Virus record (IMG/VR): IMGVR_UViG_3300015371_000014
Coordinates: 16,354 to 80,353 of that record
DNA length: 64,000 bases
Strand: one strand, 5' to 3'
Source: a virus
Shown here: one piece after another, positions 1,021 through 54,919 of the stretch
How the letters are laid out: each line of letters opens with the position of its first letter
Position numbering within the stretch: position 1 is the stretch's first letter
The notes under the pieces: model-generated
The model's input: only the letters and a program-made list of their open reading frames with translations
Database searches by the model: none
What the model was told of the DNA's origin: nothing
Program-made: the position numbers and the translations under genes

Positions 1021-1049
1021 TTGACACCTGTCAATTTGGCACCTATGAT
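1021..1049 (+). promoter_or_regulatory. morphogenesis-operon promoter whose -35 is half of the 14-bp palindrome (1021-1034)
   Basis: TTGACA-17 bp-TATGAT; TTGACACCTGTCAA. Confidence 0.8.
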
Positions 1050-1222
1050 GCAATCTAAGTAGGTTGATAGGTGTCGCTGTGGTGACTCTTCACCAGTAAT
1101 CGCCACAACTCGCGACAGGTAAGCGGTCCCCCTCCGGATGCTGCCTTAGTCTCGAAACGATAGCCGCAACCATGATGCATACTGCATCGCGGAAGCATTG
1201 CTATAGAGAGACGAGGCAGAAC

Positions 1223-2650
1223 ATGACAGAACCCAACCAAAGGGAAGAAGGGGAATCTCACCCCTCTTTCCGTGTAGGGGTTCCGATGCAGGTGGCAAAG
1301 CTCAGTTCGGCTGAGCGAGCCAAGCTGGTTACGCTGGCCCACGAGCGTGCCCCTGATCCCACGGTGTTTGAGGATCAAGAGCCTTTTTTCTTCACGGCTC
1401 GTGCCTCAAACCAGACCGTGGACTCCTACTTCACCAGGATGAACGAAACCTCTCTCAACAACTACGCGCAGGACGCGACCGATCCTGGCGTCCAGTTCAT
1501 GGTCAGTCACGATGTGATGGAAGTCGGCTTTGGACGTTCCCTTGCTGGTCGGGTAACCGGACCCAAGGGCAATAAAGAATGCCTGATTGACTTCTATACG
1601 ATCCCTGGCCTCCGCGCTGGGAACGTCTCCTCAGATGAATTCATCAACGGCTCCAGGGCTGGCATCTATGCGGATGTCTCGATTGGGTTCAATCCCAAGG
1701 CGATGATCTGCAATATTTGCGGCAATGACTGGATGCGCCGTTGGATGGATATGTGGGACGACAGCGTTGACTCCTGCACTCACTGGCCGGGAATGGAATA
1801 CGAAATTGAGAAGGGACGTAAGAACACAAAAGTGACCTGCGTCCTTGACGTGCAAGACGCACGTCTCAATGAAGTGTCCCTGGTCTACGATGGCGCAACC
1901 CCTGGGGCTGGTATTGCCGCAGTGGACATGGCGCGAATGATGAGTGCTAGGGGACAATTGAATCCAGTGGAGCGCCAAGCTCTGGAAAACATCTATCGGG
2001 TCCGGATTGCCGCTCCTCCTGGTCTGTATGGGGGAGTCGAGCTAGGAGATGTGAGGTACAGCGTCGTGACGAAAACCACTAATAACACTGAGACTCAGCG
2101 CACCGTTGAGGCCGAAGAGAACGAGGTTGACCCACAGCCGGTTCCTGAGGCTCGCAAGGCGGTAGTCGAGTTTGTTGAGGATCGGGCAGAGGCTACGCCT
2201 GAGGAAAACGCTTCGCCACTGGAGATGGTGCGGCGGAAATTCGCAGACCGTGGGCTGAACCTCGATGGAGAGCCTCACGAGATCATTGATGCCCTGGCGG
2301 AAAAGGCTCTGGCCCAACGTCAGCAAATCAAGGATCTGGAAAAGGAAGCTGGTTATGGGCGCGAAGCTCGTACCGCTCTCTTGACCGCCCTGGACGAAGA
2401 GGTGGTCCGCGCTTTTGGTGGCGCTAACGCCGAAGAGAGCCAGAAGCGATACCGCCGCATGGTTGCCGATCTCGACATGAGTGAGATTCAGGCAGTCATC
2501 GATGAACTAGGAGAGCGAGCCGTCGCCAGAATTGGCAAGGGCGGTCAGAAGGCTCTTCTTGATCTCAAAGCAAACGGGAAAGAGCAACCCGAAGTCCCGG
2601 CTGATCGCAAGCCCCGACCTCGCGGCGAAACTCCTTCGCACCTGATCTAA
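1223..2650 (+). CDS. prohead protease/scaffold fusion
   Basis: First gene of the head module; MVSHD, DVSIGF and EVSLVYDGA motifs of HK97-type proteases with a CxxC insertion; helical charged C-terminus; start at 1223 chosen from GAGG RBS (track start 1172). Confidence 0.75.
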   Translation: MTEPNQREEGESHPSFRVGVPMQVAKLSSAERAKLVTLAHERAPDPTVFEDQEPFFFTARASNQTVDSYFTRMNETSLNNYAQDATDPGVQFMVSHDVMEVGFGRSLAGRVTGPKGNKECLIDFYTIPGLRAGNVSSDEFINGSRAGIYADVSIGFNPKAMICNICGNDWMRRWMDMWDDSVDSCTHWPGMEYEIEKGRKNTKVTCVLDVQDARLNEVSLVYDGATPGAGIAAVDMARMMSARGQLNPVERQALENIYRVRIAAPPGLYGGVELGDVRYSVVTKTTNNTETQRTVEAEENEVDPQPVPEARKAVVEFVEDRAEATPEENASPLEMVRRKFADRGLNLDGEPHEIIDALAEKALAQRQQIKDLEKEAGYGREARTALLTALDEEVVRAFGGANAEESQKRYRRMVADLDMSEIQAVIDELGERAVARIGKGGQKALLDLKANGKEQPEVPADRKPRPRGETPSHLI

Positions 2651-2662
2651 GGAGCTATTACT

Positions 2663-3103
2663 ATGGCGAACCCGCGTAAGGTAATCGTCCACGATGACAT
2701 CGGTTTTCGTGGCCTCACCTTCCTCATCGATGGTTCCACCATCGTCTGGAGCGCTACCGCAAAAAATGGATCGGCTTCGGCTGGTCTGGCTGTGGCTCTG
2801 GTCGCTGGCACCACGATGACGGTGGAACTCGTGACCACGAACCAATCGGTTCTGGGCCGTCTCGACAATGTGGCGCAGGACGGTTCCTGCACCGTGCAGA
2901 TTGAAGGCCAGTGCTACCTCCCACAGGCAACTGGTGGTGATGTGGTCCGTGGCGGCAAGTGTGTCGGCGGTCTGGGTCCATCTTCGGCGCGTGGATATAT
3001 CAAGGAACCGGATACGACAAGCGCAGCCTCCGCGCTGCCTGCACGTCACTTGGTTCTGGATGACACGACCGCTACGGCGATCAGCGTCTTCCTCAGCCCG
3101 TAA
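2663..3103 (+). CDS. capsid decoration/cement protein
   Basis: Small Gly/Ala/Val-rich beta protein between protease and capsid genes; AGGAG RBS. Confidence 0.6.
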   Translation: MANPRKVIVHDDIGFRGLTFLIDGSTIVWSATAKNGSASAGLAVALVAGTTMTVELVTTNQSVLGRLDNVAQDGSCTVQIEGQCYLPQATGGDVVRGGKCVGGLGPSSARGYIKEPDTTSAASALPARHLVLDDTTATAISVFLSP

Positions 3104-3132
3104 GAGCCGCGTGGCAGCGGTGGAGGAATACT

Positions 3133-5599: not shown

Positions 5600-6233
5600 T
5601 ATTTCCTTCTATCCGCGTCGCTATATGCGGGGATTGGCCTCTGGCGATCTCCGCGAAGATGGCGCGATCTGGCGTGATGACGGATATGGGTTCACGCTCT
5701 TAACTGTCACCAAAGCGTCAGTACGCCATCGCCTCAACCAACCCGCACCGGATGATCCCCAGGAAGCGACCGCAGCTAATGCAGAGTTTGTCGAGGTTCA
5801 CTTTCCCTGGGACTCTCCGGTACGGATTGGGGATAAATACGTGCAGGACGGTCGGTCCTGGGTGATCGGACTCACCAACATTACGGATTCCTACAGCACC
5901 TTTGCGCGGTGTTACGCGGCCCGTCCTATTGCCGCCACGCCGCGCCAGTGGGTGTCCTTCCGTCGCTACCTTCAGCCTGAGCAACAGTGGATCATTCTCG
6001 CGCCCCAACTGGTGCAGCTTGCCTGGAGTAAGAACCAACCAGACCGACTGGGTGGCGTAGCGATTCGCCAGTACGGATACATCTTTGCCCCAGAGGATAT
6101 GCCACCCCTTGATGTGCAACAGGGAGACACGTTCTACCTTGATGGAATGAGCGCCGTGGTGACCTGGGCCGCTCCCTCGACTGGCTCTCGCCGCGAAGCG
6201 CTGTTTGCCATCAACGTTGGGGAGGGTGTCTGA
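5583..6233 (+). CDS. head closure/neck protein (putative)
   Basis: Position; two IGD/QGD-type beta repeats; start may be GTG 5592. Confidence 0.5.
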   Translation: MVDVPSISFYPRRYMRGLASGDLREDGAIWRDDGYGFTLLTVTKASVRHRLNQPAPDDPQEATAANAEFVEVHFPWDSPVRIGDKYVQDGRSWVIGLTNITDSYSTFARCYAARPIAATPRQWVSFRRYLQPEQQWIILAPQLVQLAWSKNQPDRLGGVAIRQYGYIFAPEDMPPLDVQQGDTFYLDGMSAVVTWAAPSTGSRREALFAINVGEGV

Positions 6234-6619
6234 TGCCCTGGCCGCTACGCGAGGTTCCGAATCCTTTCTATGGCCCTGACGCACGTCCCTGGAATGATCT
6301 TTCCCCAGGATCCTACTGGACGATCCCAGCCGACAAAGAAGGCTATTTTGTTCGGCCCCTCTCACCAGAGTTTCATGCTTCGGGTCGAGACTTCGCGATC
6401 TTCATTACCTTGCCAGGGGGAGCGGAGTGGTGTCCAGACATGATCTCTTCTGAGAGTGGTCATGGTTGGACGGTTACAGGAGAACTCCCAAAGATCACTG
6501 CTCATCCAAGCGTGCATCAGATCGGTCGTTATCACGGATTCGTTACAGATGGCGTGCTAACCGACGATCTGGAAGGGCGCACCTACGATGACAGGAGTTT
6601 GACAGATGTCAATCTTTGA
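6233..6619 (+). CDS. DUF6527-like protein
   Basis: WTVTGELPKITAHPSV..YHGFVTDG motif. Confidence 0.5.
   Translation: MPWPLREVPNPFYGPDARPWNDLSPGSYWTIPADKEGYFVRPLSPEFHASGRDFAIFITLPGGAEWCPDMISSESGHGWTVTGELPKITAHPSVHQIGRYHGFVTDGVLTDDLEGRTYDDRSLTDVNL
6599..6612. repeat. 14-bp palindrome, 1 mismatch
   Basis: TTGACAGATGTCAA over the peptidase start codon. Confidence 0.75.
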
Positions 6620-7364
6620 AGCTGGTGGACTAGGGCGACTCCCTCCCACGGATGACAAGCACCTCCGGATGTTCAGTCTAACCCCTGAGACGATGCCCTC
6701 TGAACCAACGCCCGTCGTGATCGGTATCAACTGGTACGAGCGGTTCGATAACTACTTTCAAGACGACAAGGGCCACTACTGGATCTCTCGCTCAGGGATG
6801 GATCTGGGGCGTATTCGTGGCGGTCACTGTATCTGCGTGGCTTCGCCCCACATCATAGACCGCTGGTGGCCTTTCTATGACCAGGGTTCTGAGGGAGCCT
6901 GCGTTGGCTTTGGTTGGTCGCGCTACGCCTCACTAATGAACAGGGTGCGCTATGACGGCTTCAAGCTCTACCACGAAGCACAAAAGATCGATGAGTGGGC
7001 TGGCGAAAACTATAGCGGAACCTCTGTTCGCGCTGGTGGTGATGTCCTGCGTACTCTGGGCGCTTGGAAAGTGCTGCGAGGAAAGACGCAAGACTACCCC
7101 GACGCTGAAGCTGGCATCGTTCAGTACCGCTGGGCCACCACCATCGAGCAAGTTGCACAATGCCTCTCACCGCACGACGACGGTCACAGGATTCTGAGTG
7201 ACGGGTTTCTCGTTCTGCTCAACTCCTGGGGACCACGCTATCCTGCCAAGGTGAGGATGGATCTTGACACTGCATATCGCGTTCTCTTCAAAGAAGAGGG
7301 TGATGTGAGCATGGCGACTGATCGCCCTGCTTTGCCAAATACCGCGAGAGGATTTCTTGTATGA
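6606..7364 (+). CDS. papain-like (C1A) cysteine peptidase with rearranged motif order
   Basis: DQGSEGACVGF, GGHCI and NSWG motifs all present. Confidence 0.8.
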   Translation: MSIFEAGGLGRLPPTDDKHLRMFSLTPETMPSEPTPVVIGINWYERFDNYFQDDKGHYWISRSGMDLGRIRGGHCICVASPHIIDRWWPFYDQGSEGACVGFGWSRYASLMNRVRYDGFKLYHEAQKIDEWAGENYSGTSVRAGGDVLRTLGAWKVLRGKTQDYPDAEAGIVQYRWATTIEQVAQCLSPHDDGHRILSDGFLVLLNSWGPRYPAKVRMDLDTAYRVLFKEEGDVSMATDRPALPNTARGFLV

Positions 7365-10331: not shown

Positions 10332-10931
10332 ATGTCCGACGTTATTCAGATCAACCCGTCTCTGGGTGCCAACGGCGCACAGCCTGAGGCCCCAGAGAAG
10401 GCCCCCTACATCGATGTCGTGGTGGAAACGGTGAATTCTGCCGATGACATCAGCTACCTGACGATGGGACCAAAGAAACTTTCGGGTTCCATCTTCGCGG
10501 GGAGAACGGCGGAAGAAGCCTATCCGGTTATCCCCTTCAAGCTCGTGCAAACCTCAATCCGCGAACAGCAGCAGTTGATGGCGGATGTCCGCATCATCAA
10601 CCTGACTGACCGCACCATCCTCGACATGCAGCCCCACAAGGTGCGCGAGCTTATCGACCGGCTCTTCTTCAACACCAACACCTCTCCGGTCAAAGTCACC
10701 GGCAAACAGCGCACCAACCAGAACCTCGATAGGCTGAAGGAGATCTGCTACGCCTATGGCTGCGCCGGTTTCGTCAGTCCGAAGCTGGTCTTGAGCCAGA
10801 CCGAAGAGGATCTGGAGAACGACATTCTCTGGGTAGGCCGTATTGCGCTCGCAGACCTGCACGAGTTCTGGCGCATTTGTGAAGGAGCAGACGACCTCGC
10901 AGCGCGACGGTTGGAAGGGTTTTCTGAGTAA
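10332..10931 (+). CDS. tail assembly chaperone (gpG-like)
   Basis: Between tube and tape measure genes; GGGTTTT near the 3' end. Confidence 0.7.
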   Translation: MSDVIQINPSLGANGAQPEAPEKAPYIDVVVETVNSADDISYLTMGPKKLSGSIFAGRTAEEAYPVIPFKLVQTSIREQQQLMADVRIINLTDRTILDMQPHKVRELIDRLFFNTNTSPVKVTGKQRTNQNLDRLKEICYAYGCAGFVSPKLVLSQTEEDLENDILWVGRIALADLHEFWRICEGADDLAARRLEGFSE

Positions 10932-11316
10932 TCGCTACGAGCTATTCCTGCTCTGCGAACGCTGCAAGATCTTTTCCAATATGTCGCCATCCACGGCTGC
11001 GGGACTGTATCTCCAGTTCCCGCCCTGGATATGCCTGGAGATCGACAAGGGACTCGCTCAATACGTGCGCTGGTATGAAGGGCGCATGGAGGCCACAGAG
11101 AAGTCTGGCAAGTACAAGACCAGACCGAAATTCAAGACCCTGGCTGATGTCCTGGGGATTAACGAGCAGAAGGCTCGCGGTGGAATGAGTGGAGCCGATC
11201 TGAAAGACGTTTCCGGCGATTACAAACAAGCCGTGATCGCCGCCGCGAGACAGGGTCTTCCGGCACCGGATATCAACGAATTCTTAGCAAAGCGCAATCA
11301 ACCGCTAGAGAGTTGA
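10918..11316 (+). CDS. tail assembly chaperone extension (gpT-like), probably reached by frameshift
   Basis: Open in the +1 frame across the end of gpG; no RBS before its internal ATG. Confidence 0.6.
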   Translation, partial: GFLSNRYELFLLCERCKIFSNMSPSTAAGLYLQFPPWICLEIDKGLAQYVRWYEGRMEATEKSGKYKTRPKFKTLADVLGINEQKARGGMSGADLKDVSGDYKQAVIAAARQGLPAPDINEFLAKRNQPLES

Positions 11317-11326
11317 CAGGTGTCAA
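11313..11326. repeat. 14-bp palindrome
   Basis: TTGACAGGTGTCAA immediately before the tape measure ATG. Confidence 0.9.
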
Positions 11327-40830: not shown

Positions 40831-40839
40831 TGTTTCTCC

Positions 40840-41091: not shown

Positions 41092-41104
41092 GAGACTCCC
41101 TTTC

Positions 41105-41362: not shown

Positions 41363-41405
41363 GACTCCCTCTACGACATGGGATTCCGACTTCCCATCTG
41401 GTCGT

Positions 41406-41434
41406 ACCTTACCACAACTATGGTGCTTTGTCAA
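41406..41434 (-). promoter_or_regulatory. sigma70-type promoter (GTTGTGG-TAAGGT class)
   Basis: TTGACA-17 bp-TAAGGT. Confidence 0.75.
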
Positions 41435-41682
41435 GAGTATCTGTTGCGTCTCTGGAGGAATTGTCGCTTCTCCTCCAGAGAGGAAAACACCCTGTTTCCG
41501 GCTCGCTGGTTGCAGTGGAAGCAAGACGCGACGAGATTGCTGCGAGCATTGCCGCCACCACGAGAGCCAGGGATAACGTGGTCTACCGTGGTGGCGAATC
41601 TCCCGCAATAGATACAGGTGTAATTGTGTTCCTTGAGGACGGATCGATGAACGGTCTTACCAGGACGGATCCTCCGACCCAC
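41431..41682 (-). CDS. HNH endonuclease
   Basis: CIYCG..TVDHVIP.SRGG..NLVASCFHCN; GAGGAG RBS and GTG 41682. Confidence 0.85.
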   Translation of the reverse strand: MGRRIRPGKTVHRSVLKEHNYTCIYCGRFATTVDHVIPGSRGGGNARSNLVASCFHCNQRAGNRVFSSLEEKRQFLQRRNRYS

Positions 41683-43633: not shown

Positions 43634-43644
43634 CGTATTCCTCT

Positions 43645-44508: not shown

Positions 44509-44602
44509 AGGCTATCGCGTCTGCGGACGGAAGGGGAGCGGGATAGGCACCGCTCCCTATTCTTTTGCCCGTCCTGCAAGTATATCCTATCGTGTCAATG
44601 CT

Positions 44603-45901
44603 TTAGAACGGTGCTTCCTCCTCGTCTTCATTGGCGAAGAAGGTTTCGGTCAGGGAATCCGTTGCGCCCTCGACGTATGCCTTGACATCGTCTGGCATCT
44701 CGTCGTCTTCCTCTTCCTCCTCGACCACGGTGAAATCCTTGAAGGACACATCGGCGGCATCATGAACCGTTGTCTCATCGGGCATGCCAGCCTCTTCCCA
44801 TTCCTCTGTTGCGGCGTCGTAGGCAGCGATCTCTTCCACGACCGGGCTGGTGCCCAACAGATCGAGGATGTACTTCAGGGTGTCCTTGGCTTCCTTCTGG
44901 TCGTCGGTCAGCTTCTTGACGTGGCTGAACTCAACGCTTGCCATGGTGAGCAGCTGAACGATGTTGTTGAGCCGGTCTTCCTTGGTGACCTTGCTCTGGC
45001 GCGTTTTCTTCTCAGGCGTGGCAAGCTCGCGTGGCTCATCTCCACCCGTAAGTTCGAATCCCTGCTCCTCATTGATCAGGTCCGCGCTGCTCTCAAGCTC
45101 CGCATCATCGTAAGGAAGCTCGCCCTTGTCATCGAAGAGGGATGAGGGAAGGTCGTTTTCCAGGGACTGCACAACGTTGAACTTGCGAGCCTCGATAACC
45201 TCGTCGGAGGTAATGCGGCCATTCTGATCGAGGATTGCCAGCAGGCGAGCCGTCCCAGCAGGCCCAAGACGAGAGGCATGCTTGGCGCTCCATGGCTTCA
45301 TCTTGTCCTGCTCAACCGCCTTGAACAGGCGCGGGTGCAGCTTCTGGCCGATGTCGCGCAGCGCACGCACTGTCTCCAGAGGGGTACCGGAAGCCGCCGC
45401 AATGGTCTGCTCCGTGTAACCCTGCTCCATTAGATCCTTGACCGTCCGCGCATCACCCGTGACGTTCTCACCGCGCTTGTAGTTCATGCTCAGAGAGCGG
45501 AGCTTCAGGTCGCGCTGGGTCTTGCGAGGGTTGATCACTGCCGGGATAGAGGAGAACCCATTCGCTCCCTCTGCGTGCAGCATATTGAAGGTCTTGAGCC
45601 GTCGTCGCCCCTCGACCACCACGTAGCGATCTCCGACCGCCTCAACCACGATGGGAACTTCTAGTCCGTTGGCGCGAACGTCATCCACGAAGCTCTCCGT
45701 GGGGTAGTCGCCAATATCCTCCCAGCCATCGATGTCACCCAGAGCGATCAGGCGGGACTGGAATGCCTTTGGGGTAACCTGTGCGGTGGTCAGAACCGGA
45801 AACGATGGCCCATCGGCCTCGCCGCCATTCCCATTCGCCGCGACCTTTGGCTGCGCGACTTCCGCCTCTGCCTCTACCGTTTGCTTCTTCACTCGTGGCA
45901 C
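44603..45901 (-). CDS. ParB/Srx-family protein with HTH and long acidic tail
   Basis: VRANGLEVPIVV..YVVVEGRRRL; GYTEQTIAAASG HTH. Confidence 0.85.
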   Translation of the reverse strand: MPRVKKQTVEAEAEVAQPKVAANGNGGEADGPSFPVLTTAQVTPKAFQSRLIALGDIDGWEDIGDYPTESFVDDVRANGLEVPIVVEAVGDRYVVVEGRRRLKTFNMLHAEGANGFSSIPAVINPRKTQRDLKLRSLSMNYKRGENVTGDARTVKDLMEQGYTEQTIAAASGTPLETVRALRDIGQKLHPRLFKAVEQDKMKPWSAKHASRLGPAGTARLLAILDQNGRITSDEVIEARKFNVVQSLENDLPSSLFDDKGELPYDDAELESSADLINEEQGFELTGGDEPRELATPEKKTRQSKVTKEDRLNNIVQLLTMASVEFSHVKKLTDDQKEAKDTLKYILDLLGTSPVVEEIAAYDAATEEWEEAGMPDETTVHDAADVSFKDFTVVEEEEEDDEMPDDVKAYVEGATDSLTETFFANEDEEEAPF

Positions 45902-45951
45902 TGGATCCTCCTGGTTTCTCTCTGCCGGGGAACTCCCCCGACCACACTTAC

Positions 45952-45980
45952 AAGATAGCAGACCTTACACCCTCTGTCAA
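45952..45980 (-). promoter_or_regulatory. promoter of the parB-like/replication operon
   Basis: TTGACA-17 bp-TATCTT with extended TG. Confidence 0.7.
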
Positions 45981-45999
45981 GGGTTTTTCTGTACCAATT

Positions 46000-46013
46000 T
46001 TGACAGGTGTCAA
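46000..46013. repeat. 14-bp palindrome, 19 bp upstream of a -35
   Basis: TTGACAGGTGTCAA. Confidence 0.9.
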
Positions 46014-46017
46014 CTCC

Positions 46018-46359
46018 CTATCCTCCGCACGCCCACCACACGCTGCCAAGGTGAGCGGCGGTCCAATAGATCTGGGTCACGCCATCGGCATACGCCACGC
46101 TGCCCCATGTTGCATCGTTGATTTGTAGTAATCCCACATCGGTCCCGCCATACGGATTCGGGTGAACAGCTGTCGGATCTCCTCTACTCTCACAGAAGAT
46201 CAACCACATGATGGTGTCCACACACCCCTGGTCACCACAGGCGTCTTCTACGTAAGGTCGCCACTGTTCCACGGCGGATGAGTACTGTGCGTTTGCTGCC
46301 GCCCCACTGAGTGTCAAGCCCATCAGGGCGATGCTTGCTGCGAGTACAAACCGCTTCAT
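46018..46359 (-). CDS. secreted lytic transglycosylase (SLT/lysozyme-like)
   Basis: Signal peptide; CESRGDPTA..GLLQINDATW. Confidence 0.75.
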   Translation of the reverse strand: MKRFVLAASIALMGLTLSGAAANAQYSSAVEQWRPYVEDACGDQGCVDTIMWLIFCESRGDPTAVHPNPYGGTDVGLLQINDATWGSVAYADGVTQIYWTAAHLGSVWWACGG

Positions 46360-46379
46360 ACCACGTCCCTTCTCTCTTG

Positions 46380-46700
46380 TTACGGTCTTCGTCCTGGCCT
46401 ATCTGTGTTGGTGATCTTCTCTACCTCATAGAAGTGGAGCTTTCCATCCATCGTTTCTTCACAGATAGCACTCGCCACTACGCCCAAATAGACGTTGGTG
46501 TCTTCGTCGTTGTAGGTGGCGATCTCCCGCAGTAGGTCTTGTCGATCCTCACGGGAGAGACGAAAAAACAGTCCCACGATGACATCCCGAATTTCGTGGT
46601 TCACAAGGTTCTGGATCTTGACCCGAATGAGGTTCCCCTGTCGGGCGTAGCGAAGCTCAGCGTTATCCTTGTAGCCGATAACCGCCATGGGATTGGTCAT
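46380..46700 (-). CDS. hypothetical protein
   Basis: TGATG coupling. Confidence 0.55.
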   Translation of the reverse strand: MTNPMAVIGYKDNAELRYARQGNLIRVKIQNLVNHEIRDVIVGLFFRLSREDRQDLLREIATYNDEDTNVYLGVVASAICEETMDGKLHFYEVEKITNTDRPGRRP

Positions 46701-47305
46701 CAGTAGCTCTCCAGCATCCTCTCCACGACCTCTGGGGCTAGCAACGTGGCCCACTTCCCATGCGCGATCATCATGACAGGATTGGCCGCGTTCAGGTTCA
46801 CGATCCAAGTCTTCTTGTTGGTCTTGTCGTAGACAATCTCCCTGGCAAGCCCGTGGTCAACTCGCCACAGGAATCGCTCGTAGCTGATCACGAAGACCGC
46901 ATCGGTAAAGACCTGGGCGATCAGGATCGGGAGTCCATTCTCCCTGCGCCACAAATGGAGTGGTCCTAACTCCTCGTCTTTGAGAATCACCCCCATCCTG
47001 GGAGTCTTCGCTGACTGGTTGGAAAACTTCACTTCAACCACAAACACCGGCACATGGAGGTAGGCATCGATCACCAGGATATCGGGACACTTCCCCTCGC
47101 CCTCTCGCTCTCGATGCGCCTGAAAGTGACTGGCGAACTCTTCTCCTTCCTCGTACGCCGTGCCATCTGAGGTACCCAGAGGTTCAGCCCTGTGCGTGCC
47201 GGTTGAGGACACCCACCAGGACACGAGTTGCTCTGCCTGTGACCCCATCCCGTGCCGGTAGGTGAAGTCCTGCCCACGGGGAGCGGGGATTCTAGAACGG
47301 CTCAT
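46700..47305 (-). CDS. PD-(D/E)xK nuclease, AccI-family-like
   Basis: G..AEQ, GKCPDILV, VEVKFS, LKDEEL..W..PILIAQVFTD. Confidence 0.6.
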   Translation of the reverse strand: MSRSRIPAPRGQDFTYRHGMGSQAEQLVSWWVSSTGTHRAEPLGTSDGTAYEEGEEFASHFQAHREREGEGKCPDILVIDAYLHVPVFVVEVKFSNQSAKTPRMGVILKDEELGPLHLWRRENGLPILIAQVFTDAVFVISYERFLWRVDHGLAREIVYDKTNKKTWIVNLNAANPVMMIAHGKWATLLAPEVVERMLESY

Positions 47306-47642
47306 CGTACGTGCCAACCGCATATTCGGTGACTACAGCACCAGAGCCGGGAGGGCCGAAGTCAGGAACGTACGGTTCACAATCATCATCCCTGTTGTCG
47401 TAATCAAACATCGCCCTGGAGAGAGCTTTGGTGTATGCCAGTAAGCGATCAAGTGTCTGACTCATCTCCTCTCGATCATCGGTATTCAGTTCTTGGATGG
47501 CCTTCCCATCCACCATCAACACCAGACAGTCAGCCTCTTCCACAAGCTCTAGAGGTATCCCGGCCTCTACCTCCAAGAGTTGAACCTTCTTGTCCAGGGC
47601 GACAAGCCAATCGGGAGTCTGATCCGTGTCGAGATTATTCAA
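47292..47642 (-). CDS. hypothetical acidic protein
   Basis: GGAGG RBS; ends YDEPF. Confidence 0.55.
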   Translation of the reverse strand: MNNLDTDQTPDWLVALDKKVQLLEVEAGIPLELVEEADCLVLMVDGKAIQELNTDDREEMSQTLDRLLAYTKALSRAMFDYDNRDDDCEPYVPDFGPPGSGAVVTEYAVGTYDEPF

Positions 47643-47898
47643 GTCCGACCTCCTCCGGAGCGTTTGTCTTATCGAAAATGCGGCCCACCGAAACGATAAC
47701 CTCGCCTACTCTGGCGTACAGGGTGCCGCACCCTTCACAGCGCACTGCCCTGCCATTCCCCAGCCGATACCCATGACCTCCTGGGCACGGACACTGCACG
47801 ACCACAGACTTAGGGCGATTTTTCCCATCGATGCGGACGTTGTGAAGCTCTGGCTGGAGTCCATTGGACACCATGTTTATGTAGAACGCTTCGGACAA
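47635..47898 (-). CDS. zinc-ribbon protein
   Basis: CPCPGGH..CEGCG. Confidence 0.55.
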   Translation of the reverse strand: MSEAFYINMVSNGLQPELHNVRIDGKNRPKSVVVQCPCPGGHGYRLGNGRAVRCEGCGTLYARVGEVIVSVGRIFDKTNAPEEVGLE

Positions 47899-48095
47899 TG
47901 GGGTGCCTTTCGTTTCTTCTTCGGGTAATCAAGCTCCTGGTCGGCTTCTCTCATGAGGCTCCAGAGGTCTTGCAGATCGTTGAGCCTATCCTCTTCCTCC
48001 TTCGCTTGATCGAGCAGACGTTCCGCTGCCCTCCGAAATCCTTCCACATTCTGCTTGGCGTTGTGGATATCGACCGCGAGTTCGAGGAGGTTCAT
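47877..48095 (-). CDS. hypothetical coiled-coil protein
   Basis: ATGA overlap. Confidence 0.55.
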   Translation of the reverse strand: MNLLELAVDIHNAKQNVEGFRRAAERLLDQAKEEEDRLNDLQDLWSLMREADQELDYPKKKRKAPHCPKRST

Positions 48096-48352
48096 AGTCC
48101 TTTGTCGCTATAGAGCGCCCACCCAGAAAGCTTTCCAGCTTCAGCGATGTCGCCACGCTCATATGCTTCAAGGGCTTCTTTCTGAAGCTCCGCGCCTGCG
48201 AAGAGCTTGTAATCCCCTGTCTTGTAGACACCGAACGCATCGCGCACTTTCCACCAGCCGGTTGACAACATCACTATTGTGAAGCGATTGAAGCGCGTTT
48301 TTGTTGTTAGTGGAATTTGCCGTGCTTCCGGCGTCTCAATAAATACCGCCAT
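48092..48352 (-). CDS. hypothetical protein
   Basis: GGAGG RBS. Confidence 0.65.
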   Translation of the reverse strand: MAVFIETPEARQIPLTTKTRFNRFTIVMLSTGWWKVRDAFGVYKTGDYKLFAGAELQKEALEAYERGDIAEAGKLSGWALYSDKGL

Positions 48353-48362
48353 CGATACCTCC

Positions 48363-48770
48363 TCACTCCTTCTCCAGATTCACCACGGGGAGGTCGTACT
48401 CAAAACACATGTAGTCCACGGCTTCGTCGAGTCTCTTGAAGGGTTTCGGTACCAGGATCTTGACTGGTCGCTCGATGTACACCCGCCACTCGATATGATT
48501 CGGCTGGTCGTTGGTGCGAATGATCCTGGCTGTGAGTCCGTCTTTGAAGCTATACCTCCAGTCACCGTTACCTAGCTTCTTCCGATAGTCCGGTGGCATC
48601 CGCTTGAATTCCCGCTTAGCCGCACTCATCTCCCGAATCCTCTCCGGTACCTCTCCGTGCAGAGACGGAATGATCACCGTCTCGTCCTCCCTGTCCCTCA
48701 GGCCCAGCTTGTTGTGACCCAGGACGCGACTTCCCATGCGATTCAGCCCATCTTCCCAGAAATCCGACAC
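48363..48770 (-). CDS. hypothetical protein
   Basis: GGAGG RBS and GTG 48770. Confidence 0.6.
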   Translation of the reverse strand: MSDFWEDGLNRMGSRVLGHNKLGLRDREDETVIIPSLHGEVPERIREMSAAKREFKRMPPDYRKKLGNGDWRYSFKDGLTARIIRTNDQPNHIEWRVYIERPVKILVPKPFKRLDEAVDYMCFEYDLPVVNLEKE

Positions 48771-48873
48771 TGTATCCTCCTTTGCCCGTTCCCTTGCAGT
48801 AAGGGCATTCCGATTGTCCCTCTGGTAGGGACGGCAACCAACCGTCCCCACCACACGCATGGCAGTAGCTCAC
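48616..48873 (-). CDS. DnaJ-type zinc-finger protein
   Basis: CHACGGDG..CPYCKGTG. Confidence 0.55.
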   Translation of the reverse strand: MSYCHACGGDGWLPSLPEGQSECPYCKGTGKGGYSVGFLGRWAESHGKSRPGSQQAGPEGQGGRDGDHSVSARRGTGEDSGDECG

Positions 48874-49652
48874 TTCTTCTCCAACTTCACTGGTAGTCCG
48901 GAACGACGAGCTTGCTCCAGGGCAGGTTCGTGGCGACCATCTTCCGTGTCTTCGATCACATCGAGTCGGTGGATAGGCAGCACCATGAAGATGCCCTCTG
49001 TGTAGAGAGGATCAATCCCCTTGGGCTTCTTTCGTCCGACATAGGTGGTATCACCAAGCTCCCGCTCCACCGTACGGGGAGGATCAGAGGGGTCCAGGGA
49101 GTTCGTGCCTGACTTGATGTCATCCCACCACAGCGAGACACACATCTCCCGCGTGTTATTACGGAACTTGTGGTCGCTCTCCCACGGGTATCCGTCGTGC
49201 TTCTCCGTCTCGCAGAGGCAGCGGAAGGGATGCACCTCTGGGTACTCGTTCGCCTCTTCGATGAGGGCGTCGTAGTACTCAGCGCAGTTGTCAATGATCG
49301 CTCGCTCATGCACCAGGATGATCTTGCTGGCGGGAGAGAGAAGTTCCAGGCGAGCATCCCGCTTGATGCGACGGCTCAGTCCTGACCGCCTCACTTCCTC
49401 GAAGAAGTCGGCCACGTTTGGGTAGTACTTCTTTCCCACCCGGTCATAGACATCGAACACGCCGGGGAACCCTGGTCGCTCTAGGATCGAGACACCGCGC
49501 TCTGGAATGAGCATGTCTGGGGGGCAGGGGATCGGAGGATCCACCAGGAATTTCTCCAGGGGATCTCCCCGCGTCCCCATCAGGGTCCGCATATACACGC
49601 CACCAGGCTCTCGCTCGCCGCATCCGCGCTCGCCAACCTCTGTTGCATCCAT
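48870..49652 (-). CDS. hypothetical phage protein
   Basis: 260-aa ORF after promoter, AAGGAG RBS, ERGCG.R.PGGVY motif. Confidence 0.7.
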   Translation of the reverse strand: MDATEVGERGCGEREPGGVYMRTLMGTRGDPLEKFLVDPPIPCPPDMLIPERGVSILERPGFPGVFDVYDRVGKKYYPNVADFFEEVRRSGLSRRIKRDARLELLSPASKIILVHERAIIDNCAEYYDALIEEANEYPEVHPFRCLCETEKHDGYPWESDHKFRNNTREMCVSLWWDDIKSGTNSLDPSDPPRTVERELGDTTYVGRKKPKGIDPLYTEGIFMVLPIHRLDVIEDTEDGRHEPALEQARRSGLPVKLEKK

Positions 49653-49703
49653 GTCCTGACTCCTTCTCGTGAGGTGGAGTTCCGATTCCCCACCAACACG
49701 ATC

Positions 49704-49732
49704 ATCCTAGCAGAACCATTACTCTTTGTCAA
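49704..49732 (-). promoter_or_regulatory. sigma70-type promoter
   Basis: TTGACA-17 bp-TAGGAT with extended TG. Confidence 0.75.
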
Positions 49733-49737
49733 TAGTC

Positions 49738-49751
49738 TTGACAGGTGTCAA
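49738..49751. repeat. 14-bp palindrome, 5 bp upstream of a -35
   Basis: TTGACAGGTGTCAA. Confidence 0.9.
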
Positions 49752-49830
49752 TTCATCGAGAGGATCAGCATGGCAGCGAGGGCCAGGAAGACGACCACGA
49801 ACCCCCAACACATCCCCGCTACCCAGGGGT

Positions 49831-50172
49831 TCATCTCTTTACCACCTTTGCCCTGATGATGACTTGCTGACTGTACTCAGCTGACTTCGCGATGGCATCT
49901 GGGGTTTCTACGGTGCCACGGAACACCACCGTGGCATGGATCTCATCGCCCTGAATGGTGGCTGAGTAGACGAAAGAGTCGAGATCGAAGCCTGTCAATG
50001 TCTCTGGAGGAACGTAATCCTTCATCGCCTGAGCCATCCGACTCCGGTAGACCCCGATTGGTGTCTGGCGAATCCTGGCAATCTCCTCCCTCTCCTCTTG
50101 CTTGAGACTGTCGCGAGGGGCGCTCTTCTTGGTGGCTTTCTCCTCTGATGCCTTGCGTGGCGTCATGAGCAA
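49831..50172 (-). CDS. hypothetical protein
   Basis: Operon packing. Confidence 0.55.
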   Translation of the reverse strand: MLMTPRKASEEKATKKSAPRDSLKQEEREEIARIRQTPIGVYRSRMAQAMKDYVPPETLTGFDLDSFVYSATIQGDEIHATVVFRGTVETPDAIAKSAEYSQQVIIRAKVVKR

Positions 50173-50672
50173 GACACGTCGAGACTGGCGATCTCGCTGA
50201 TGGTATCGGTGAGAGCATCTTGAAACTCTTCGTCGCCATCTTCACCCTCATCGAAGTCATCACGATCCGGGATGTCCACGTTCTCGATATCGTCAGCCCA
50301 TGCTTCCATGGCCTCAATCCGTTCTTGCATCAGAGTGCCAACATCGCCGTCTCGCAGGGAGTCTGGCATGTTGTCCAACTTGTCCTGGGTTTCCTGAGCG
50401 ACATCTCTGGCACGCTGTGCCCAGTCATCCCGCTCAACCGTAAGATCCTCAGCGGTTTCCACGGAGCATCGCCCCATGTCGTCTTGGATCCCGTACACAT
50501 CCTGCCAGAATTCCGACATGGTCAGCTGGGAGCGGGTTGGGTAGGTCTTGGAGCAACGACGGACACCTCGCCCTGACACCATATTGCTCCACCAGTAATA
50601 GGTGTCGCCAACCTTGACATCGCACTCTGGTTTGGGCTTCTGCGCTCGCTGAACCTTGTGAACCTTGGGCAT
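50163..50672 (-). CDS. hypothetical protein (acidic helical C-terminus)
   Basis: AAGGAG RBS; TAATG coupling. Confidence 0.7.
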   Translation of the reverse strand: MPKVHKVQRAQKPKPECDVKVGDTYYWWSNMVSGRGVRRCSKTYPTRSQLTMSEFWQDVYGIQDDMGRCSVETAEDLTVERDDWAQRARDVAQETQDKLDNMPDSLRDGDVGTLMQERIEAMEAWADDIENVDIPDRDDFDEGEDGDEEFQDALTDTISEIASLDVSCS

Positions 50673-51106
50673 TATGCTGTCTCCTTCTTCCGGTAGATTC
50701 CGTACACGCATCTCGTCCCGCCCTGTGACGGGTCATAGGTGTCGTGGACCACGCCATCGATCACCGCTACGCAGTGCTTACTCACTCTGGCAACGATACG
50801 TCCCTTCGGTAGCTCCTCCTCTCTCAGGTGAACCTTGCACCCGACACCAACTTTCACCAGGGGAATCCACTCCCAACCCAGGTGTTCCATGACGTAATCG
50901 CGAGTTTTGCGACTCACCCCCTTTCTCGCATTGCCATGACTCCTGCCATCAACCTGATTCAGTACCTTCGTGGCTGCGTTGAGCAGGTTGTACATCACCG
51001 TGTAAGGTGTTTCAGTGGCGATGGCGAATGATCTCGCGACGCAGTCTCTGACTTCCCCCTCAAATCCTGCCTCTGCCCGACCTCCGTCGTCATACACGAA
51101 ATTCAC
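50672..51106 (-). CDS. putative papain-fold Cys/His/Asp protein
   Basis: DCVARSFAIA..KHCVAVIDGVVHDTYD. Confidence 0.5.
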   Translation of the reverse strand: MNFVYDDGGRAEAGFEGEVRDCVARSFAIATETPYTVMYNLLNAATKVLNQVDGRSHGNARKGVSRKTRDYVMEHLGWEWIPLVKVGVGCKVHLREEELPKGRIVARVSKHCVAVIDGVVHDTYDPSQGGTRCVYGIYRKKETA

Positions 51107-51369
51107 GCTGGTACCCCATCTTTCACTGCGCCTACGACACACCAACGAGACACATTGACGATGACGATCTCAAAGCTCTCGACCTCGCGATTCATCGTGT
51201 GGACCCTGCCACCCCATCCCTTGACGAGGATCCTGGGCAGCTTGGACAGAGCCATCGCTTGAAGCTCCGCTGCATCGAAGTCAGGGAACTCATCCTTCCA
51301 TTCGTCATAGATGGGAAAGGGGTATCCGTTTTCTCCCTGCACCTGGAGAATGAAATTCTTCTGGCTCAC
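51103..51369 (-). CDS. hypothetical protein
   Basis: GGGGAG RBS after promoter. Confidence 0.6.
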   Translation of the reverse strand: MSQKNFILQVQGENGYPFPIYDEWKDEFPDFDAAELQAMALSKLPRILVKGWGGRVHTMNREVESFEIVIVNVSRWCVVGAVKDGVPA

Positions 51370-51417
51370 GAACTGACTCCCCTCTGCGAGTGAGGCTTCC
51401 GAAACCTCATTGGTGCA

Positions 51418-51446
51418 ACCTTACCACAACCTCCATCCTGTGTCAA
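51418..51446 (-). promoter_or_regulatory. sigma70-type promoter (GTTGTGG-TAAGGT class)
   Basis: TTGACA-17 bp-TAAGGT. Confidence 0.75.
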
Positions 51447-51946
51447 GTATGAGAAACGAGGCTGATTGCTCAGCCCCGCCTCCCAGAACATAGGTTATCG
51501 TTCACGAGTTGCCCTAGGTGTTCGAGAAGACCCCGGTTACATGGTGCCCACCTTTCGTTTCAAAAACCCGAATCTCGCTCTGAAAAAATATTTGGATTTG
51601 GCCGGTTTTCATGGACCGGGAATCCAGTGGAACGAATGTATCATAGGTGACAGGCTGTGTCAAGGGGGTAAAAACGCTACTGGCCCAACCGAAGTCAGGC
51701 CAGTAAACGCTCGGAAACCTTGGAGAGGGGGAATCAGCGCCTTGCGGGGTTGCTCACGGGGCGAGCATGCTTGGCTTTGGAAACCTCTCCTCAGCGTTTT
51801 TGACAGGGAGTCTCACTTCTCTGCCAACCGAAATGTAGCACGGATGTGCTGATCTGTCAAGAGGGGGCGGGGCGGCTAGTGGAAGGATCCAGCCGCCCCA
51901 GCAGGAGTCGGGATGATCAGGGTCCGATGGTGTAATAAACCCCTGA

Positions 51947-53307: not shown

Positions 53308-53321
53308 TTGACAGGTGTCAA
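53308..53321. repeat. 14-bp palindrome over the HNH start codon
   Basis: TTGACAGGTGTCAA. Confidence 0.9.
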
Positions 53322-53626: not shown

Positions 53627-54836
53627 TGGATTTGACCCCCGGCACCTTGACCGGATTTTCCAGCCCCGGCACGGTTAGCTCGATTTCCAGACCCTCTTCC
53701 ATATGTCGCCATTCCGATTTGGACCCCCCGGCATCTTCGCGGATTTTGACCCCCGGCATAGTGGCCGGATTTTCTACCCCTGCCAGTGTCGGTGGATTTT
53801 GACTCCCATCCATCTCTGTGGAATTTCCACCCCCGCCTAGATCGGTGGATTTTTGACCCCCACTGACCTCCGTGGATTTTTCCCACTCCCCTGAGATTTC
53901 GTGGATTTTTTCTTGAGTGGGGGTCGTTTCCTCCGATTTTTCCTTGCGAAATACCGAAATATCCCGATTTTTGGCAATAAAATTAGGCGGAAATTCCCCT
54001 GAGAACTCTGCCAGAGCTTGCCCAACCCTGTTGCGGTAGATCGGCTTCTCATACAGATCGACCAGGAGATGGTCTATGGCACGCTTGTTCGCCCTCTCTG
54101 GTAAGCGGGAGTCCACTAATGTCTTTTCGCACCACTCCAGGGTGTGTTCCCTGTTCCATAGCGTTTCCTGCCAATCCGCTTTCTGCATGGCGATGCGTTC
54201 CCGTACGTCATTGAGCCTCCTGAGGGTGTCTTTGGGGTTGTGATTGGTTGATTCTTGCTCAAGAATATGGCGTGCCAGGAAGAGAGGATAGAGAGAGGAG
54301 ATCACCTGGAGGAAGTTATCGCCCTTGGCATAGTTCTCTTGCTGTTTTGGTTCTGGTCCCAGGGCGATAAACCACTTATCACGATGCGTCCCAATTAATC
54401 TTCTCGCCATGGATTTGGTGAGGAAAAGAATGCGATTATCGATGACTCTTTGCCAGACAGGGCCGATGGTGATGTCGTTTCTTAGTTCGGGAAGGAGGCA
54501 GCCCAAGAATTGGGTTTTGGGGTGAGCGAGAGAGCGCATGATCATTGAAAGCTCGACCAGGAGGATCCGATTCCCCTGCTCTGCGATGACTTCCTGTGAC
54601 CATCCATGAATGTTGTCCAGGCCGAACAGCGTTCGCCCACTGGGAGCTACGATACTTACTACTACTATGCTGTCATAGGGGTCTGGAGTTCCCGCTACGG
54701 CCAGTCTGCCTGAGAAAAAGATGGAGTCAAGGTCATCCGTCCTTACTTTCTCAGGTAGGGACGCTACGACCTCGTCTCTGTATAGCTGCTTGGTTGTCTC
54801 GTGGGTCACGAATCCTCCTGCTAGCACAATTGACAC
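53604..54836 (-). CDS. degenerate Pol-beta superfamily (RlaP/YcgL-like) nucleotidyltransferase with a repeat-derived C-terminus
   Basis: FFSGRLAVAGTPDPYDS..VAPSGRTLFGL resembles GSxAYG...SDxD...AP...LLGL but lacks the GS and DxD residues. Confidence 0.45.
   Translation of the reverse strand: MSIVLAGGFVTHETTKQLYRDEVVASLPEKVRTDDLDSIFFSGRLAVAGTPDPYDSIVVVSIVAPSGRTLFGLDNIHGWSQEVIAEQGNRILLVELSMIMRSLAHPKTQFLGCLLPELRNDITIGPVWQRVIDNRILFLTKSMARRLIGTHRDKWFIALGPEPKQQENYAKGDNFLQVISSLYPLFLARHILEQESTNHNPKDTLRRLNDVRERIAMQKADWQETLWNREHTLEWCEKTLVDSRLPERANKRAIDHLLVDLYEKPIYRNRVGQALAEFSGEFPPNFIAKNRDISVFRKEKSEETTPTQEKIHEISGEWEKSTEVSGGQKSTDLGGGGNSTEMDGSQNPPTLAGVENPATMPGVKIREDAGGSKSEWRHMEEGLEIELTVPGLENPVKVPGVKSITISYGE
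53625..53945. repeat. degenerate tandem array, about 12 units of 25-34 bp (mostly 26-27)
   Basis: Core SGATTTT-n-CCCC recurring at 53628, 53653, 53681, 53715, 53741, 53767, 53794, 53820, 53847, 53874, 53903 and 53934. Confidence 0.75.
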
Positions 54837-54843
54837 CTGTCAA
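54830..54843. repeat. 14-bp palindrome over a GTG start
   Basis: TTGACACCTGTCAA. Confidence 0.9.
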
Positions 54844-54858
54844 TTTTTGTGCCTCTCA

Positions 54859-54887
54859 AGACTAGCAGAAGGACTGTGCTTTGTCAA
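54859..54887 (-). promoter_or_regulatory. sigma70-type promoter flanked by two palindromes
   Basis: TTGACA-17 bp-TAGTCT with extended TG. Confidence 0.7.
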
Positions 54888-54905
54888 TTGGATAGCCAGC
54901 ACGTT

Positions 54906-54919
54906 TTGACAGGTGTCAA
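54906..54919. repeat. 14-bp palindrome
   Basis: TTGACAGGTGTCAA. Confidence 0.9.

Follow-up and report, generated by a model that had tools for sequence, protein, structure and literature searches.

An evenly spaced palindrome in a soil phage genome and an ArdK-like protein as its candidate reader

The genome of an uncultured soil phage (G000, an 80,353-bp IMG/VR record with a 123-bp terminal repeat) carries the 14-letter palindrome TTGACA-CC-TGTCAA about once per 4-5 kb, and the phage itself encodes a small KorA/ArdK-like helix-turn-helix (HTH) protein, P0083, that we favour as its reader. In the reading that we prefer, and whose chances we put at about even, the palindrome is the operator of a P0083 dimer, which acts as a repressor on the capsid-operon promoter and one early promoter at the least.

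The window analysed comprises 64,000 nucleotides (bases 16354-80353 of the record). Searching it for TTGACACCTGTCAA with at most one mismatch gave 14 copies, nine exact and five with one mismatch, at exactly the positions and on the strands listed in an initial annotation of this DNA; the expectation of far less than one copy that was stated there agrees with dinucleotide-preserving shuffles of the window (mean 0.02 copies, never more than one). The complete genome holds 17 copies, ten of them exact. Spacing is even both in G000 and in its relative G001 (CV 0.34-0.55; P from <0.01 to <2e-4). The arms are two-fold symmetric and TGTC is present on both strands, while the asymmetric centre follows no orientation rule, the sense strand of G000 reading CC at eight sites and GG at nine. 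These observations support the view that the motif is a selected, non-random site across the whole genome. The 55-62 kb island had been described as free of copies; it contains one with two mismatches at 60334, the only one in the right arm. The sites in the window and the two proteins considered as readers are the following.

1021-1034, + strand: exact site; the capsid-operon promoter has its left arm as -35
1044-1049: -10 of the capsid-operon promoter (TTGACA-N17-TATGAT)
1064-1077, - strand: degenerate site TTGATAGGTGTCGC, starting 14 nt past the capsid-promoter -10 and matching the capsid-promoter site of G001 in position
6599-6612, - strand: one-mismatch site with GA centre; the ATG (6606) of a 252-aa gene is the site centre, 8 nt past AGGAG
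11313-11326, - strand: exact site at the junction of a chaperone-like ORF and the tape measure gene; it includes the TGA that ends ORF 10843-11316 and is directly followed by the tape measure ATG
20173-20186, - strand: one-mismatch site within the gene of a 2049-aa tail protein, encoding LTGVS
24973-24986, + strand: one-mismatch site within the same gene, encoding LTPVS; the G001 ortholog has a site about 35 codons from this position
30876-30889, + strand: exact site, codons 10-14 (LTPVN) of a 673-aa lysin with SLT, M23 and amidase domains
36001-36014, + strand: one-mismatch site; read on the sense (-) strand, it includes the stop codon (TGA) of ORF 36011-36418 together with a possible GTG start of thyX
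37771-37784, + strand: one-mismatch site, centred on the GTG (37777) with which ORF 37469-37777 starts, behind GGAAGGAA
39634-39981, - strand: P0083, 115-aa KorA/ArdK-like HTH protein, favoured candidate reader
43055-43068, + strand: exact site within the primase-helicase gene, encoding IDRCQ
44603-45901, - strand: 432-aa ParB/KorB-like protein with EGRRR box and HTH, rival reader or partner
46000-46013, - strand: exact site ending 19 bp before the -35 (45980) of the ParB-like / rep / primase-helicase operon promoter
49738-49751, - strand: exact site ending 5 bp before the -35 (49732) from which a 260-aa gene is transcribed
53308-53321, - strand: exact site; its centre, read on the + strand, is the GTG start (53315) of the HNH endonuclease gene, 8 nt past AGGAG
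54830-54843, + strand: exact site, starting 15 nt past the -10 (TAGTCT) of a leftward promoter with its -35 at 54887, between that promoter and the RBS of a 410-aa gene
54906-54919, - strand: exact site ending 18 bp before the 54887 promoter's -35, its centre 76 bp from that of the 54830 site
60334-60347, + strand: two-mismatch copy CTGTCACCTGTCAA, 29 nt before ORF 60363-60602

Most of the placement described in the initial annotation was borne out. The capsid-operon promoter does have the left arm of the 1021 copy as its -35, the copies at 49738, 54906 and 46000 end 5, 18 and 19 bp before perfect -35 boxes, and all four read CC on the sense strand. Another six copies (6599, 11313, 36001, 37771, 53308 and 54830) lie on or beside starts, with GG or GA as their sense-strand centre, and four (20173, 24973, 30876 and 43055) lie within genes, that at 30876 belonging to the multi-domain lysin; the gene at 36001 is thyX. 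The start proposed at 54836 needs correction, the likely start of the 410-aa gene being a GTG behind AGGAGG, 24 nt past the 54830 copy. A GTG or ATG start codon forms the motif centre at six sites of G000 and at least three of G001, 7-8 nt past a Shine-Dalgarno sequence, and several such sites hold the TGA of the upstream gene in their left arm. Four G000 promoters have TGACA arms on or beside them, and at three promoters such arms are found at about +9; in G000 and G001 together, a site starts 14-15 nt past the -10 at three promoters. Of the 17 sites of G000, 12 are not at promoters.

The only close relative found, G001 (79 kb, syntenic, capsid protein 62% identical), holds 24 copies of the core GACACCTGTC with at most one mismatch, where about five are expected, and 17 copies of the 8-mer ACACCTGT, where 1.4 are expected. 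The scan of genome and relatives that had been proposed extended the array to 17 sites in G000 and to a conserved core in G001, the 20 other relatives scanned being at background level. G001 lacks the outer TT/AA: its arms are mostly GTGACA, TCGACA or CTGACA and vary at the outer positions, the centre CACCTG is the most constrained part, and arm positions G3 and C5 are kept in both phages. The 'double -35' appearance by which the motif had been characterised is therefore not the conserved feature. Three positions have a site in both phages: the terminase/portal junction, where the portal GTG is the site centre, the start of the tape measure gene and the promoter of the capsid operon. Most G001 sites lie far from its roughly 26 strong promoters, so that global promoter control, as initially suggested, cannot be the whole story. 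The G001 promoter of the P0083 ortholog has as its -35 one arm of TGTCA-N5-TGACA, a repeat that occurs three times in that genome (0.08 expected) and whose arm spacing would, judging from PMC9723621, be the one bound by ArdK.

P0083 appears to be a remote member of the KorA/ArdK family. Its HTH occupies residues 17-44, with a recognition helix opening S36-R37-Q38-R39-V40. ArdK was matched by P0083 in phmmer (7bca/7bbq; E 0.0045, residues 20-77) and in blastp (R7K ArdK; 30% identity over 60 aa, E 7e-5), and by the 40-sequence family profile A3 (E 4.5e-4, positions 8-75, covering the HTH and the following strand and helix); at the sequence level the match is weak and remote but consistent across the HTH and the strand-helix (dimerisation) segment. 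Against Pfam PF16509 KORA the score was 16.6 bits (E 0.009), below the gathering threshold of 26.7 bits. The AF2 model (pLDDT 90) has helices at 10-21, 26-33 and 37-44, an extended segment and a helix at 63-75; its best natural matches in Foldseek were ArdK and KorA, both weak (E 0.02-1), and VIA-align returned generic HTH matches only (Z about 5). An extra conserved C-terminal segment is present relative to ArdK. The helix GVSRQRVS of P0083 parallels GLSRQRVS of ArdK, and the Arg-Gln pair R37-Q38 is unchanged in the G001 ortholog and frequent across the family. The pair in ArdK is R45-Q46, which contacts the G of TTGACA and the G paired with its C; the HTH of ArdK binds TTGACA arms and is reported to be identical to the one with which sigma70 recognises the -35 box (PMC9723621). 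The operators of R7K ArdK are TTGACA[C/G]CTATTGACA, the first nine nucleotides of which are common with the CC strand of the phage motif. The protein had already been put forward as a candidate binder, and the ArdK match together with the same base-contacting Arg-Gln pair makes it a good one.

We infer that a P0083 dimer binds TTGACA-CC-TGTCAA (conserved core GACACCTGTC) with one recognition helix per TGACA arm, through the Arg-Gln pair, as R388 ArdK does with TTGACA. With the phage arms head-to-head and 7 bp apart from centre to centre, the geometry would be nearer to that of KorA (12-bp palindrome) than to that of ArdK (direct repeat). Bound P0083 would occupy the -35 and about +9 of the capsid-operon promoter, and at the 54887 leftward promoter an upstream position and about +9; since a protein bound there would hinder RNA polymerase, P0083 most likely acts as a repressor at these two promoters. 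The remaining evenly spaced junction and intragenic sites would bind P0083 too, and could serve as a roadblock, as a platform for the ParB-like protein, or as a copy-number-dependent sink tying late expression to replication.

Several observations fit P0083 as the reader less well. ArdK has been reported on direct repeats; head-to-head arms with a 2-bp spacer are a feature of the phage, where ArdK-type binding is suggested by analogy. The constrained CACCTG centre in G001 is unexplained by an Arg-Gln reading of the arms, and no known KorA/ArdK regulon shows such even spacing with mostly non-promoter sites. ArdK is only a distant homolog, with KORA below its cut-off and fold matches weak or generic. 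Another relative, G002, has an HTH homolog (TRQAV helix) and lacks the palindrome array. The ParB-like protein is as well conserved as P0083.

That second protein gives rise to the main alternative, which we regard as possible but clearly less probable: the palindromes would be parS/OB-like loading sites for a partner-less ParB/KorB-like protein (44603-45901), a putative CTP clamp that would spread from the evenly spaced sites across the genome, and the ArdK-like HTH would bind TTGACA at promoters, perhaps as a clamp lock like KorA for KorB. The protein matches PHROG ParB-like families (E down to 6.5e-11) and aligns to Spo0J 1vz0 (E 4e-7) including EGRRR and HTH, and both the N-domain box VVEGRRRLK and the HTH are kept in G001, so that the KorB analogy drawn in the initial annotation has a conserved protein behind it. 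A ParA partner (PF13614) gave no match in G000 or G001, where 14 of 14 control genomes matched. Even spacing suits genome coverage better than classical operators, and sites 5-19 bp before a -35, together with distant and intragenic ones, parallel the OB sites of KorB in RK2, of which the proximal ones lie 4-10 bp upstream of promoters and others are distal (PMC11790492). In G000 the operon that encodes the protein has a site 19 bp before its promoter's -35, but in G001 the site nearest to the ParB-like gene is about 285 bp upstream. Moreover, its HTH has no residue-level link to the TGACA arms, whereas the ArdK-like protein has one, and G002 and G007 have ParB-like homologs and no array. A combination of the two proteins is less probable still: RK2-type long-range silencing would tile the viral genome, with the ParB-like clamp at palindromes every 3-5 kb and the ArdK-like lock, reading the same TGACA half-site, at TTGACA promoters; the 17-24 sites on each new genome copy could then form a replication-coupled sink that releases the capsid promoter late.

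The other explanations that we weighed are all improbable. A host-encoded DNA-binding protein might read the site, the phage exploiting a host regulator, in line with a core common to two related phages with probably related hosts. However, a phage protein of matching predicted specificity exists, the outer positions differ between G000 and G001 in step with changes in the phage HTH helix, and in two genomes holding the nearest capsid homologs the 12-mer occurs at chance level (1-2 copies per 8 Mb). We give marginally less weight to some other DNA or RNA transaction, be it an mRNA signal for translation starts or stop-start coupling, a preferred priming or nicking site or a recombination hotspot. 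The start codons at motif centres behind Shine-Dalgarno sequences and the TGA in the left arm would fit such a role, and the even spacing, with TGTC on both strands, could serve replication. At half of the sites, though, the sense strand reads CC and offers no start codon, many lie deep within genes, an RNA hairpin would have at most 5 bp with a 4-nt loop, and two-fold symmetry with eight against nine orientations suggests that a dimer reads double-stranded DNA. Where junctions leave no spacer, economy would account for the overlaid start codons. Least probable by far is the role initially offered as an alternative, that of decoys titrating region 4 of host sigma70. Both arms are perfect -35 hexamers in G000, but free sigma binds -35 DNA poorly, and the arms in G001 are mostly not TTGACA while the centre is kept, which argues against such decoys.

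Knowledge of dispersed dyad repeats in phages goes back at least to the Cluster O mycobacteriophages, where they came with neither reader nor function. In the present phage, one such array can be linked to a candidate protein and its contact residues through a homolog whose DNA complexes have been solved, and it has conserved operator positions at two promoters, which makes the question directly testable. Should the ParB-like protein take part, clamp-and-lock control of the KorA/KorB kind would reach beyond plasmids into phages.

The stoperators of Cluster A mycobacteriophages and the C1 operators of P1 are many copies of one repressor site per phage genome, asymmetric, some on promoters and others within operons; Cluster A stoperators are oriented with transcription and serve lysogenic immunity. 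The stoperator analogy proposed initially fails for the present phage on symmetry and orientation, its site being two-fold symmetric and found in eight against nine orientations, and no integrase, resolvase or ParA was detected in G000 or G001 by profile searches (PF00589, PF00239, PF13614). Cluster A stoperators are also discussed in PMC4351075.

A further comparison is with ArdK of IncW/IncN plasmids (R388), a KorA-family protein (PDB 7BBQ, 7BCA, 7BCB; PMC9723621). Both are small proteins with an N-terminal tri-helical HTH, ArdK a dimeric repressor and the phage protein a putative one; both have an SRQRVS recognition helix whose Arg-Gln pair reads, or would read, the G and C of TTGACA, and in both cases the sites overlap or adjoin -35 boxes and open with TTGACA[C/G]CT. 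ArdK, however, binds direct repeats (TTGACA-N4-TTGACA) at five plasmid promoters (PMC9723621), whereas the phage has a head-to-head inverted repeat with a 2-bp spacer in 17-24 copies, mostly away from promoters. With the KorA-KorB system of RK2 the phage shares a small KorA-family HTH protein encoded together with a ParB-family protein (PMC11790492), and one short palindrome dispersed over the replicon, at some places near promoters and at others distant. RK2 differs in having two operators (OA and OB) and a ParA (IncC), where we found one dispersed motif and no ParA, and the replicon here is a phage. Finally, Cluster O siphophages, which have a ParB-like gene and DNA-binding proteins, carry dozens of copies of the 17-bp dyad TGTTCGG-N3-CCGAACA, of unknown function, about a third of them intragenic and few near promoters, with an asymmetric centre that follows no orientation rule (PMC4351075). 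The phage array resembles these repeats in its many dyad-symmetric copies genome-wide, both inter- and intragenic, in the behaviour of its centre and in the presence of a ParB-like gene and DNA-binding proteins; it differs in motif sequence and host, in having a candidate reader derived from a solved homolog, and in the even spacing and conserved promoter-proximal positions seen in G000 and G001.

The motif TTGACACCTGTCAA was found 14 times in the window when at most one mismatch was allowed, against a mean of 0.02 in dinucleotide-preserving shuffles, and the copies agree in coordinates and strand with the fourteen of the initial annotation. What had been said of their placement (at promoters, at start codons and within genes) was borne out, small corrections apart, when the positions were checked. 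The window covers bases 16354-80353 of the IMG/VR record of this phage (G000), whose whole genome of 80,353 bp contains 17 copies; ten of these are exact, and a further copy has two mismatches. The genome has a 123-bp terminal repeat and is organised as follows:

Left part: terminase, portal and a ParB-N/methyltransferase-like protein
Long rightward structural operon: with genes for the major capsid protein, the tape measure (2582 aa), a tail protein of 2049 aa and a lysin with three domains, among others
Leftward block: thyX, VRR-NUC nuclease, the 115-aa HTH protein P0083 (39634-39981, minus strand), primase-helicase, a Rep-like protein, a ParB-like protein (44603-45901, minus strand) and an HNH endonuclease

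Profiles for integrase, resolvase and ParA, which all or nearly all control genomes matched, gave no match in G000 or in its relative G001. This was the one close relative found when IMG/VR was searched with a capsid alignment (79,344 bp, GC 62%, capsid 62% identical, syntenic), next to many genomes at 30-42%; a search with the capsid protein alone yielded no relative. Capsid homologs with 56-75% identity (P0002-P0020) are encoded on metagenome contigs of 54-79 kb, and a metagenome scan gave no close long contig among the matches listed. Among named genomes, the closest match to the capsid protein (40% identical) is encoded on a contig of Kouleothrix aurantiaca, no more than a faint hint as to the host. 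The sequence is present in rhizosphere metagenomes, in four runs as short low-depth contigs that are nearly all at least 99% alike, with no difference above the listing threshold, which makes these runs uninformative; RNA data sets containing the stretch were not listed.

In G001 the palindrome takes the form GTGACACCTGTCAC. The 8-mer ACACCTGT occurs there 17 times (about 1.4 expected) and GACACCTGTC, with at most one mismatch, 24 times (about 5 expected). The mismatches sit at the outer motif positions, the arms reading GTGACA, TCGACA or CTGACA. Since the outer TT/AA of the G000 motif is lost and the CC centre is invariant, the conserved object is GACA-CC-TGTC rather than two paired -35 hexamers. 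The observation of the initial annotation is confirmed, and its interpretation is supported in part: a selected genome-wide site and a good HTH candidate remain, whereas the 'double -35' is not a conserved property. Very likely the motif serves as a protein-binding site under selection. The 8-mer ACACCTGT is at background in 20 more distant relatives (capsids 30-42% identical), a de novo repeat search of the full sequences of five distant relatives revealed no comparable palindrome array, and the exact 14-mer gave only single chance matches across IMG/VR, among the matches listed. A literature search on the motif string found no phage report among the 20 of 101 papers listed; a study of binding motifs for human transcription factors (PMC5449588) contains TGACAGGTGTCA, which was taken as coincidence. 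The sequence (T)TTGACACCGTGTCA resembles the phage motif.

The sites are spaced more evenly than random placement allows in both phages. For the 17 sites of G000 the coefficient of variation (CV) of the spacing is 0.55 (P 0.009 versus random placement), and after merging the 76-bp pair it is 0.37-0.48 (P at most 0.002). For the 24 sites of G001 it is 0.34, with gaps between 1290 and 5545 bp, and none of 5000 simulations was as regular. No strand or orientation bias was found in either genome. Three site positions are common to both phages, although the proteins concerned are only 30-60% identical:

Terminase/portal junction: the portal GTG is the site centre in G000 and G001
Start of the tape measure gene: site in G000 and G001
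Capsid-operon promoter: site in G000 and G001

By our own arithmetic, in which approximate matches in aligned proteins were counted, some six of the 17 sites in G000 are matched by one in G001 that lies no more than about 150 bp from the syntenic position, where about 1.5 would be expected. Intragenic sites turn over between the two phages; of 21 cases, 14 are read in the coding frame xT(G/P)Vx and 6 as D(T/R)C, and the frame reading the left-arm TGA has a single instance, a G001 site with this arm mutated to TCGA. At spacer-less junctions the motif is overlaid on coding sequence. Its central GTG or ATG is the start codon at six G000 sites, 7-8 nt past the Shine-Dalgarno sequence, which is why the sense strand shows GG or GA at these sites, and at several junction sites the left-arm TGA is the stop codon of the upstream gene. 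Two genes at 6233-7364, one for a DUF6527-like protein of 128 aa and one for a protein of 252 aa without any family match, lack a counterpart in the structural operon of G001, which is otherwise syntenic; a G000 motif copy lies exactly at their junction.

Twelve promoters of G000 are near the sigma70 consensus (TTGACA-N17-TAnnnT). The capsid promoter has a site as its -35, three further sites end upstream of -35 boxes at distances of 5, 18 and 19 bp, and one lies between a promoter and the RBS. In three cases, found across the two phages, a site starts 14-15 nt past the -10 hexamer:

1064-1077: degenerate copy behind the G000 capsid promoter
54830: copy behind P54887, the leftward G000 promoter with its -35 at 54887
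G001 capsid promoter (TAGACA-N18-TAGTAT): site behind its -10

This is a repressor position that is kept between both phages, and from position only we infer repression at the capsid promoter and at P54887. Most of the 24 sites in G001 lie hundreds to thousands of bp from the approximately 26 strong promoters, and no association of sites with terminator-like hairpins was seen.

Several other elements were observed. Downstream of many promoters (window 38650-51900, G001 and the more distant relative G002) the 5'-UTR forms a short hairpin that is rich in GC and has a loop of the CGGAA type (e.g. GGGGAATCGGAACTCCAC in G000 and GGGAGCCCGGAGACGGGCTCCC, 10 times, in G002), a leader element common to the phage group. 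G001 has dense back-to-back divergent consensus promoters (TTGACA-N17-tatGGTAnTAT) at 28200-35700 of L209, and the -35 boxes of two pairs form TTGTCAAGNCTTGACAA. The non-coding stretch between the divergent promoters 54887 (minus strand) and 55781 (plus strand) contains four clustered GAAC-N4-GTTC palindromes (AGAACAnnCGTTCT; 55203-55362), a type that is also present at 61930 and occurs 8 times in the genome (1.2 expected). They resemble LexA boxes of the Gram-positive type or the operators of a second phage regulator; the cluster is absent from G001. Beside the 54906 site, three iteron-like repeats (TTCCACGGTTTT and CGTTCGAA, separated by 6-8 nt; 54927-55030) may be an origin or the array of another protein. 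The commonest 8-mers of the genome contain GATC (e.g. CGATCACC, 23 times), both G000 and G001 frequently have two GATC sites at a fixed spacing, and in G000 the gene for the ParB-N/methyltransferase-like protein adjoins the terminase gene. The terminal repeat of another distant relative, G003, is filled with the 9-bp tandem repeat CATCCTGTC (L308 80-210 and L311, the two ends of the record).

The favoured candidate for reading the palindrome is P0083, to which we give an even chance. A family search gave weak matches to several HTH families, including HTH_23, Sigma70_r4 and KORA, and the best natural match among solved structures was ArdK of plasmid R388 (7bca/7bbq), the alignment covering the HTH and the next strand and helix (GVSRQRVS versus GLSRQRVS). 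A full HMMER search returned about 170 cluster representatives; an alignment of 40 sequences (A3) shows, besides a conserved HTH, a segment of strand and helix and a C-terminal motif specific to the family, and its profile again matches ArdK (E 4.5e-4). With the ArdK ORF of plasmid R7K, which spans the record origin and was located by its helix, P0083 shares 30% identity over 60 residues (blastp, E 7e-5); hhalign of A3 with two annotated R7K genes (trw korA and a 100-aa ORF) gave no match. The AF2 model is confident (pLDDT 90), and its best natural Foldseek matches were ArdK and KorA entries, albeit weak (E 0.02-1); VIA-align returned generic HTH matches only. A word-based protein search retrieved only P0083 itself, tblastn against cultured phages and against plasmids gave no match, and a scan with HTH alignment A2 found G001 only (A3 and A4 were too variable for scanning). 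Phylogenetic profiling did not narrow down the reader, as too many proteins are exclusive to G000 and G001.

Residues R37 and Q38 of P0083, the equivalents of ArdK R45 and Q46, are invariant between G000 and G001, and the arm positions G3 and C5 are kept in both phages. ArdK contacts the G of TTGACA through Q46, and through R45 the G that pairs with the C (PMC9723621). The R7K ArdK operators read TTGACA[C/G]CTATTGACA, the first nine letters being those of the CC strand of the phage motif. The element TGTCA-N5-TGACA occurs three times in G001 (0.08 expected), twice at back-to-back divergent -35 pairs and once on the -35 of the promoter directly preceding the HTH ortholog, which suggests autoregulation in the manner of ArdK. 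In G002 (L293-L295), about 18 near-identical promoters (ACACTTGACAAC...CCCCATGATTCA) with 5'-UTR hairpins are all on one strand, and two tandem copies stand directly upstream of an HTH-protein homolog (two HTH units, TRQAV helix).

The 432-aa ParB-like protein has to be taken seriously as a rival reader or as a partner, because the array appears analogous to the distribution of OB sites of RK2 KorB. Its EGRRR box and its HTH are intact and are conserved in G001, and according to the profile search it is without ParA in both phages. RK2 KorB loads as a CTP clamp at OB sites, whose distance upstream of promoters is 4-10 bp or reaches >1 kb, and at the promoters KorA locks the clamp (PMC11790492). 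That the ParB-like protein itself reads the palindrome seems to us possible, though less likely than reading by P0083.

ArdK, a dimer of the KorA family, acts as repressor at five promoters of R388; its TTGACA arms form a direct repeat beside or on the -35, and its recognition motif is, according to the authors, identical to that of the sigma70 HTH reading the -35 (PMC9723621). Repression by ArdK extends to inverted repeats whose spacer is 3 or 4 bp long, the TGxCA elements by implication being kept 10 bp apart (PMC9723621). In contrast, the arms of the dispersed phage site stand head-to-head, 7 bp centre to centre, outside the geometries shown for ArdK and nearer to KorA on its 12-bp palindrome, and the invariant CC centre is unaccounted for by arm contacts. 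We know of no KorA/ArdK protein with an even tiling of a genome. An object of the same kind, with a different sequence, is found in Cluster O mycobacteriophages, in which a dyad repeat of 17 bp is present in more than 30 copies all over the genome (about one third inside genes, few near promoters, asymmetric centre, function unknown) and which also encode a ParB-like protein (PMC4351075). The phage array adds to this precedent its conservation in a diverged relative, the evenness of its spacing, an operator position conserved at two promoters and a residue-level link to a plasmid repressor with known structure.
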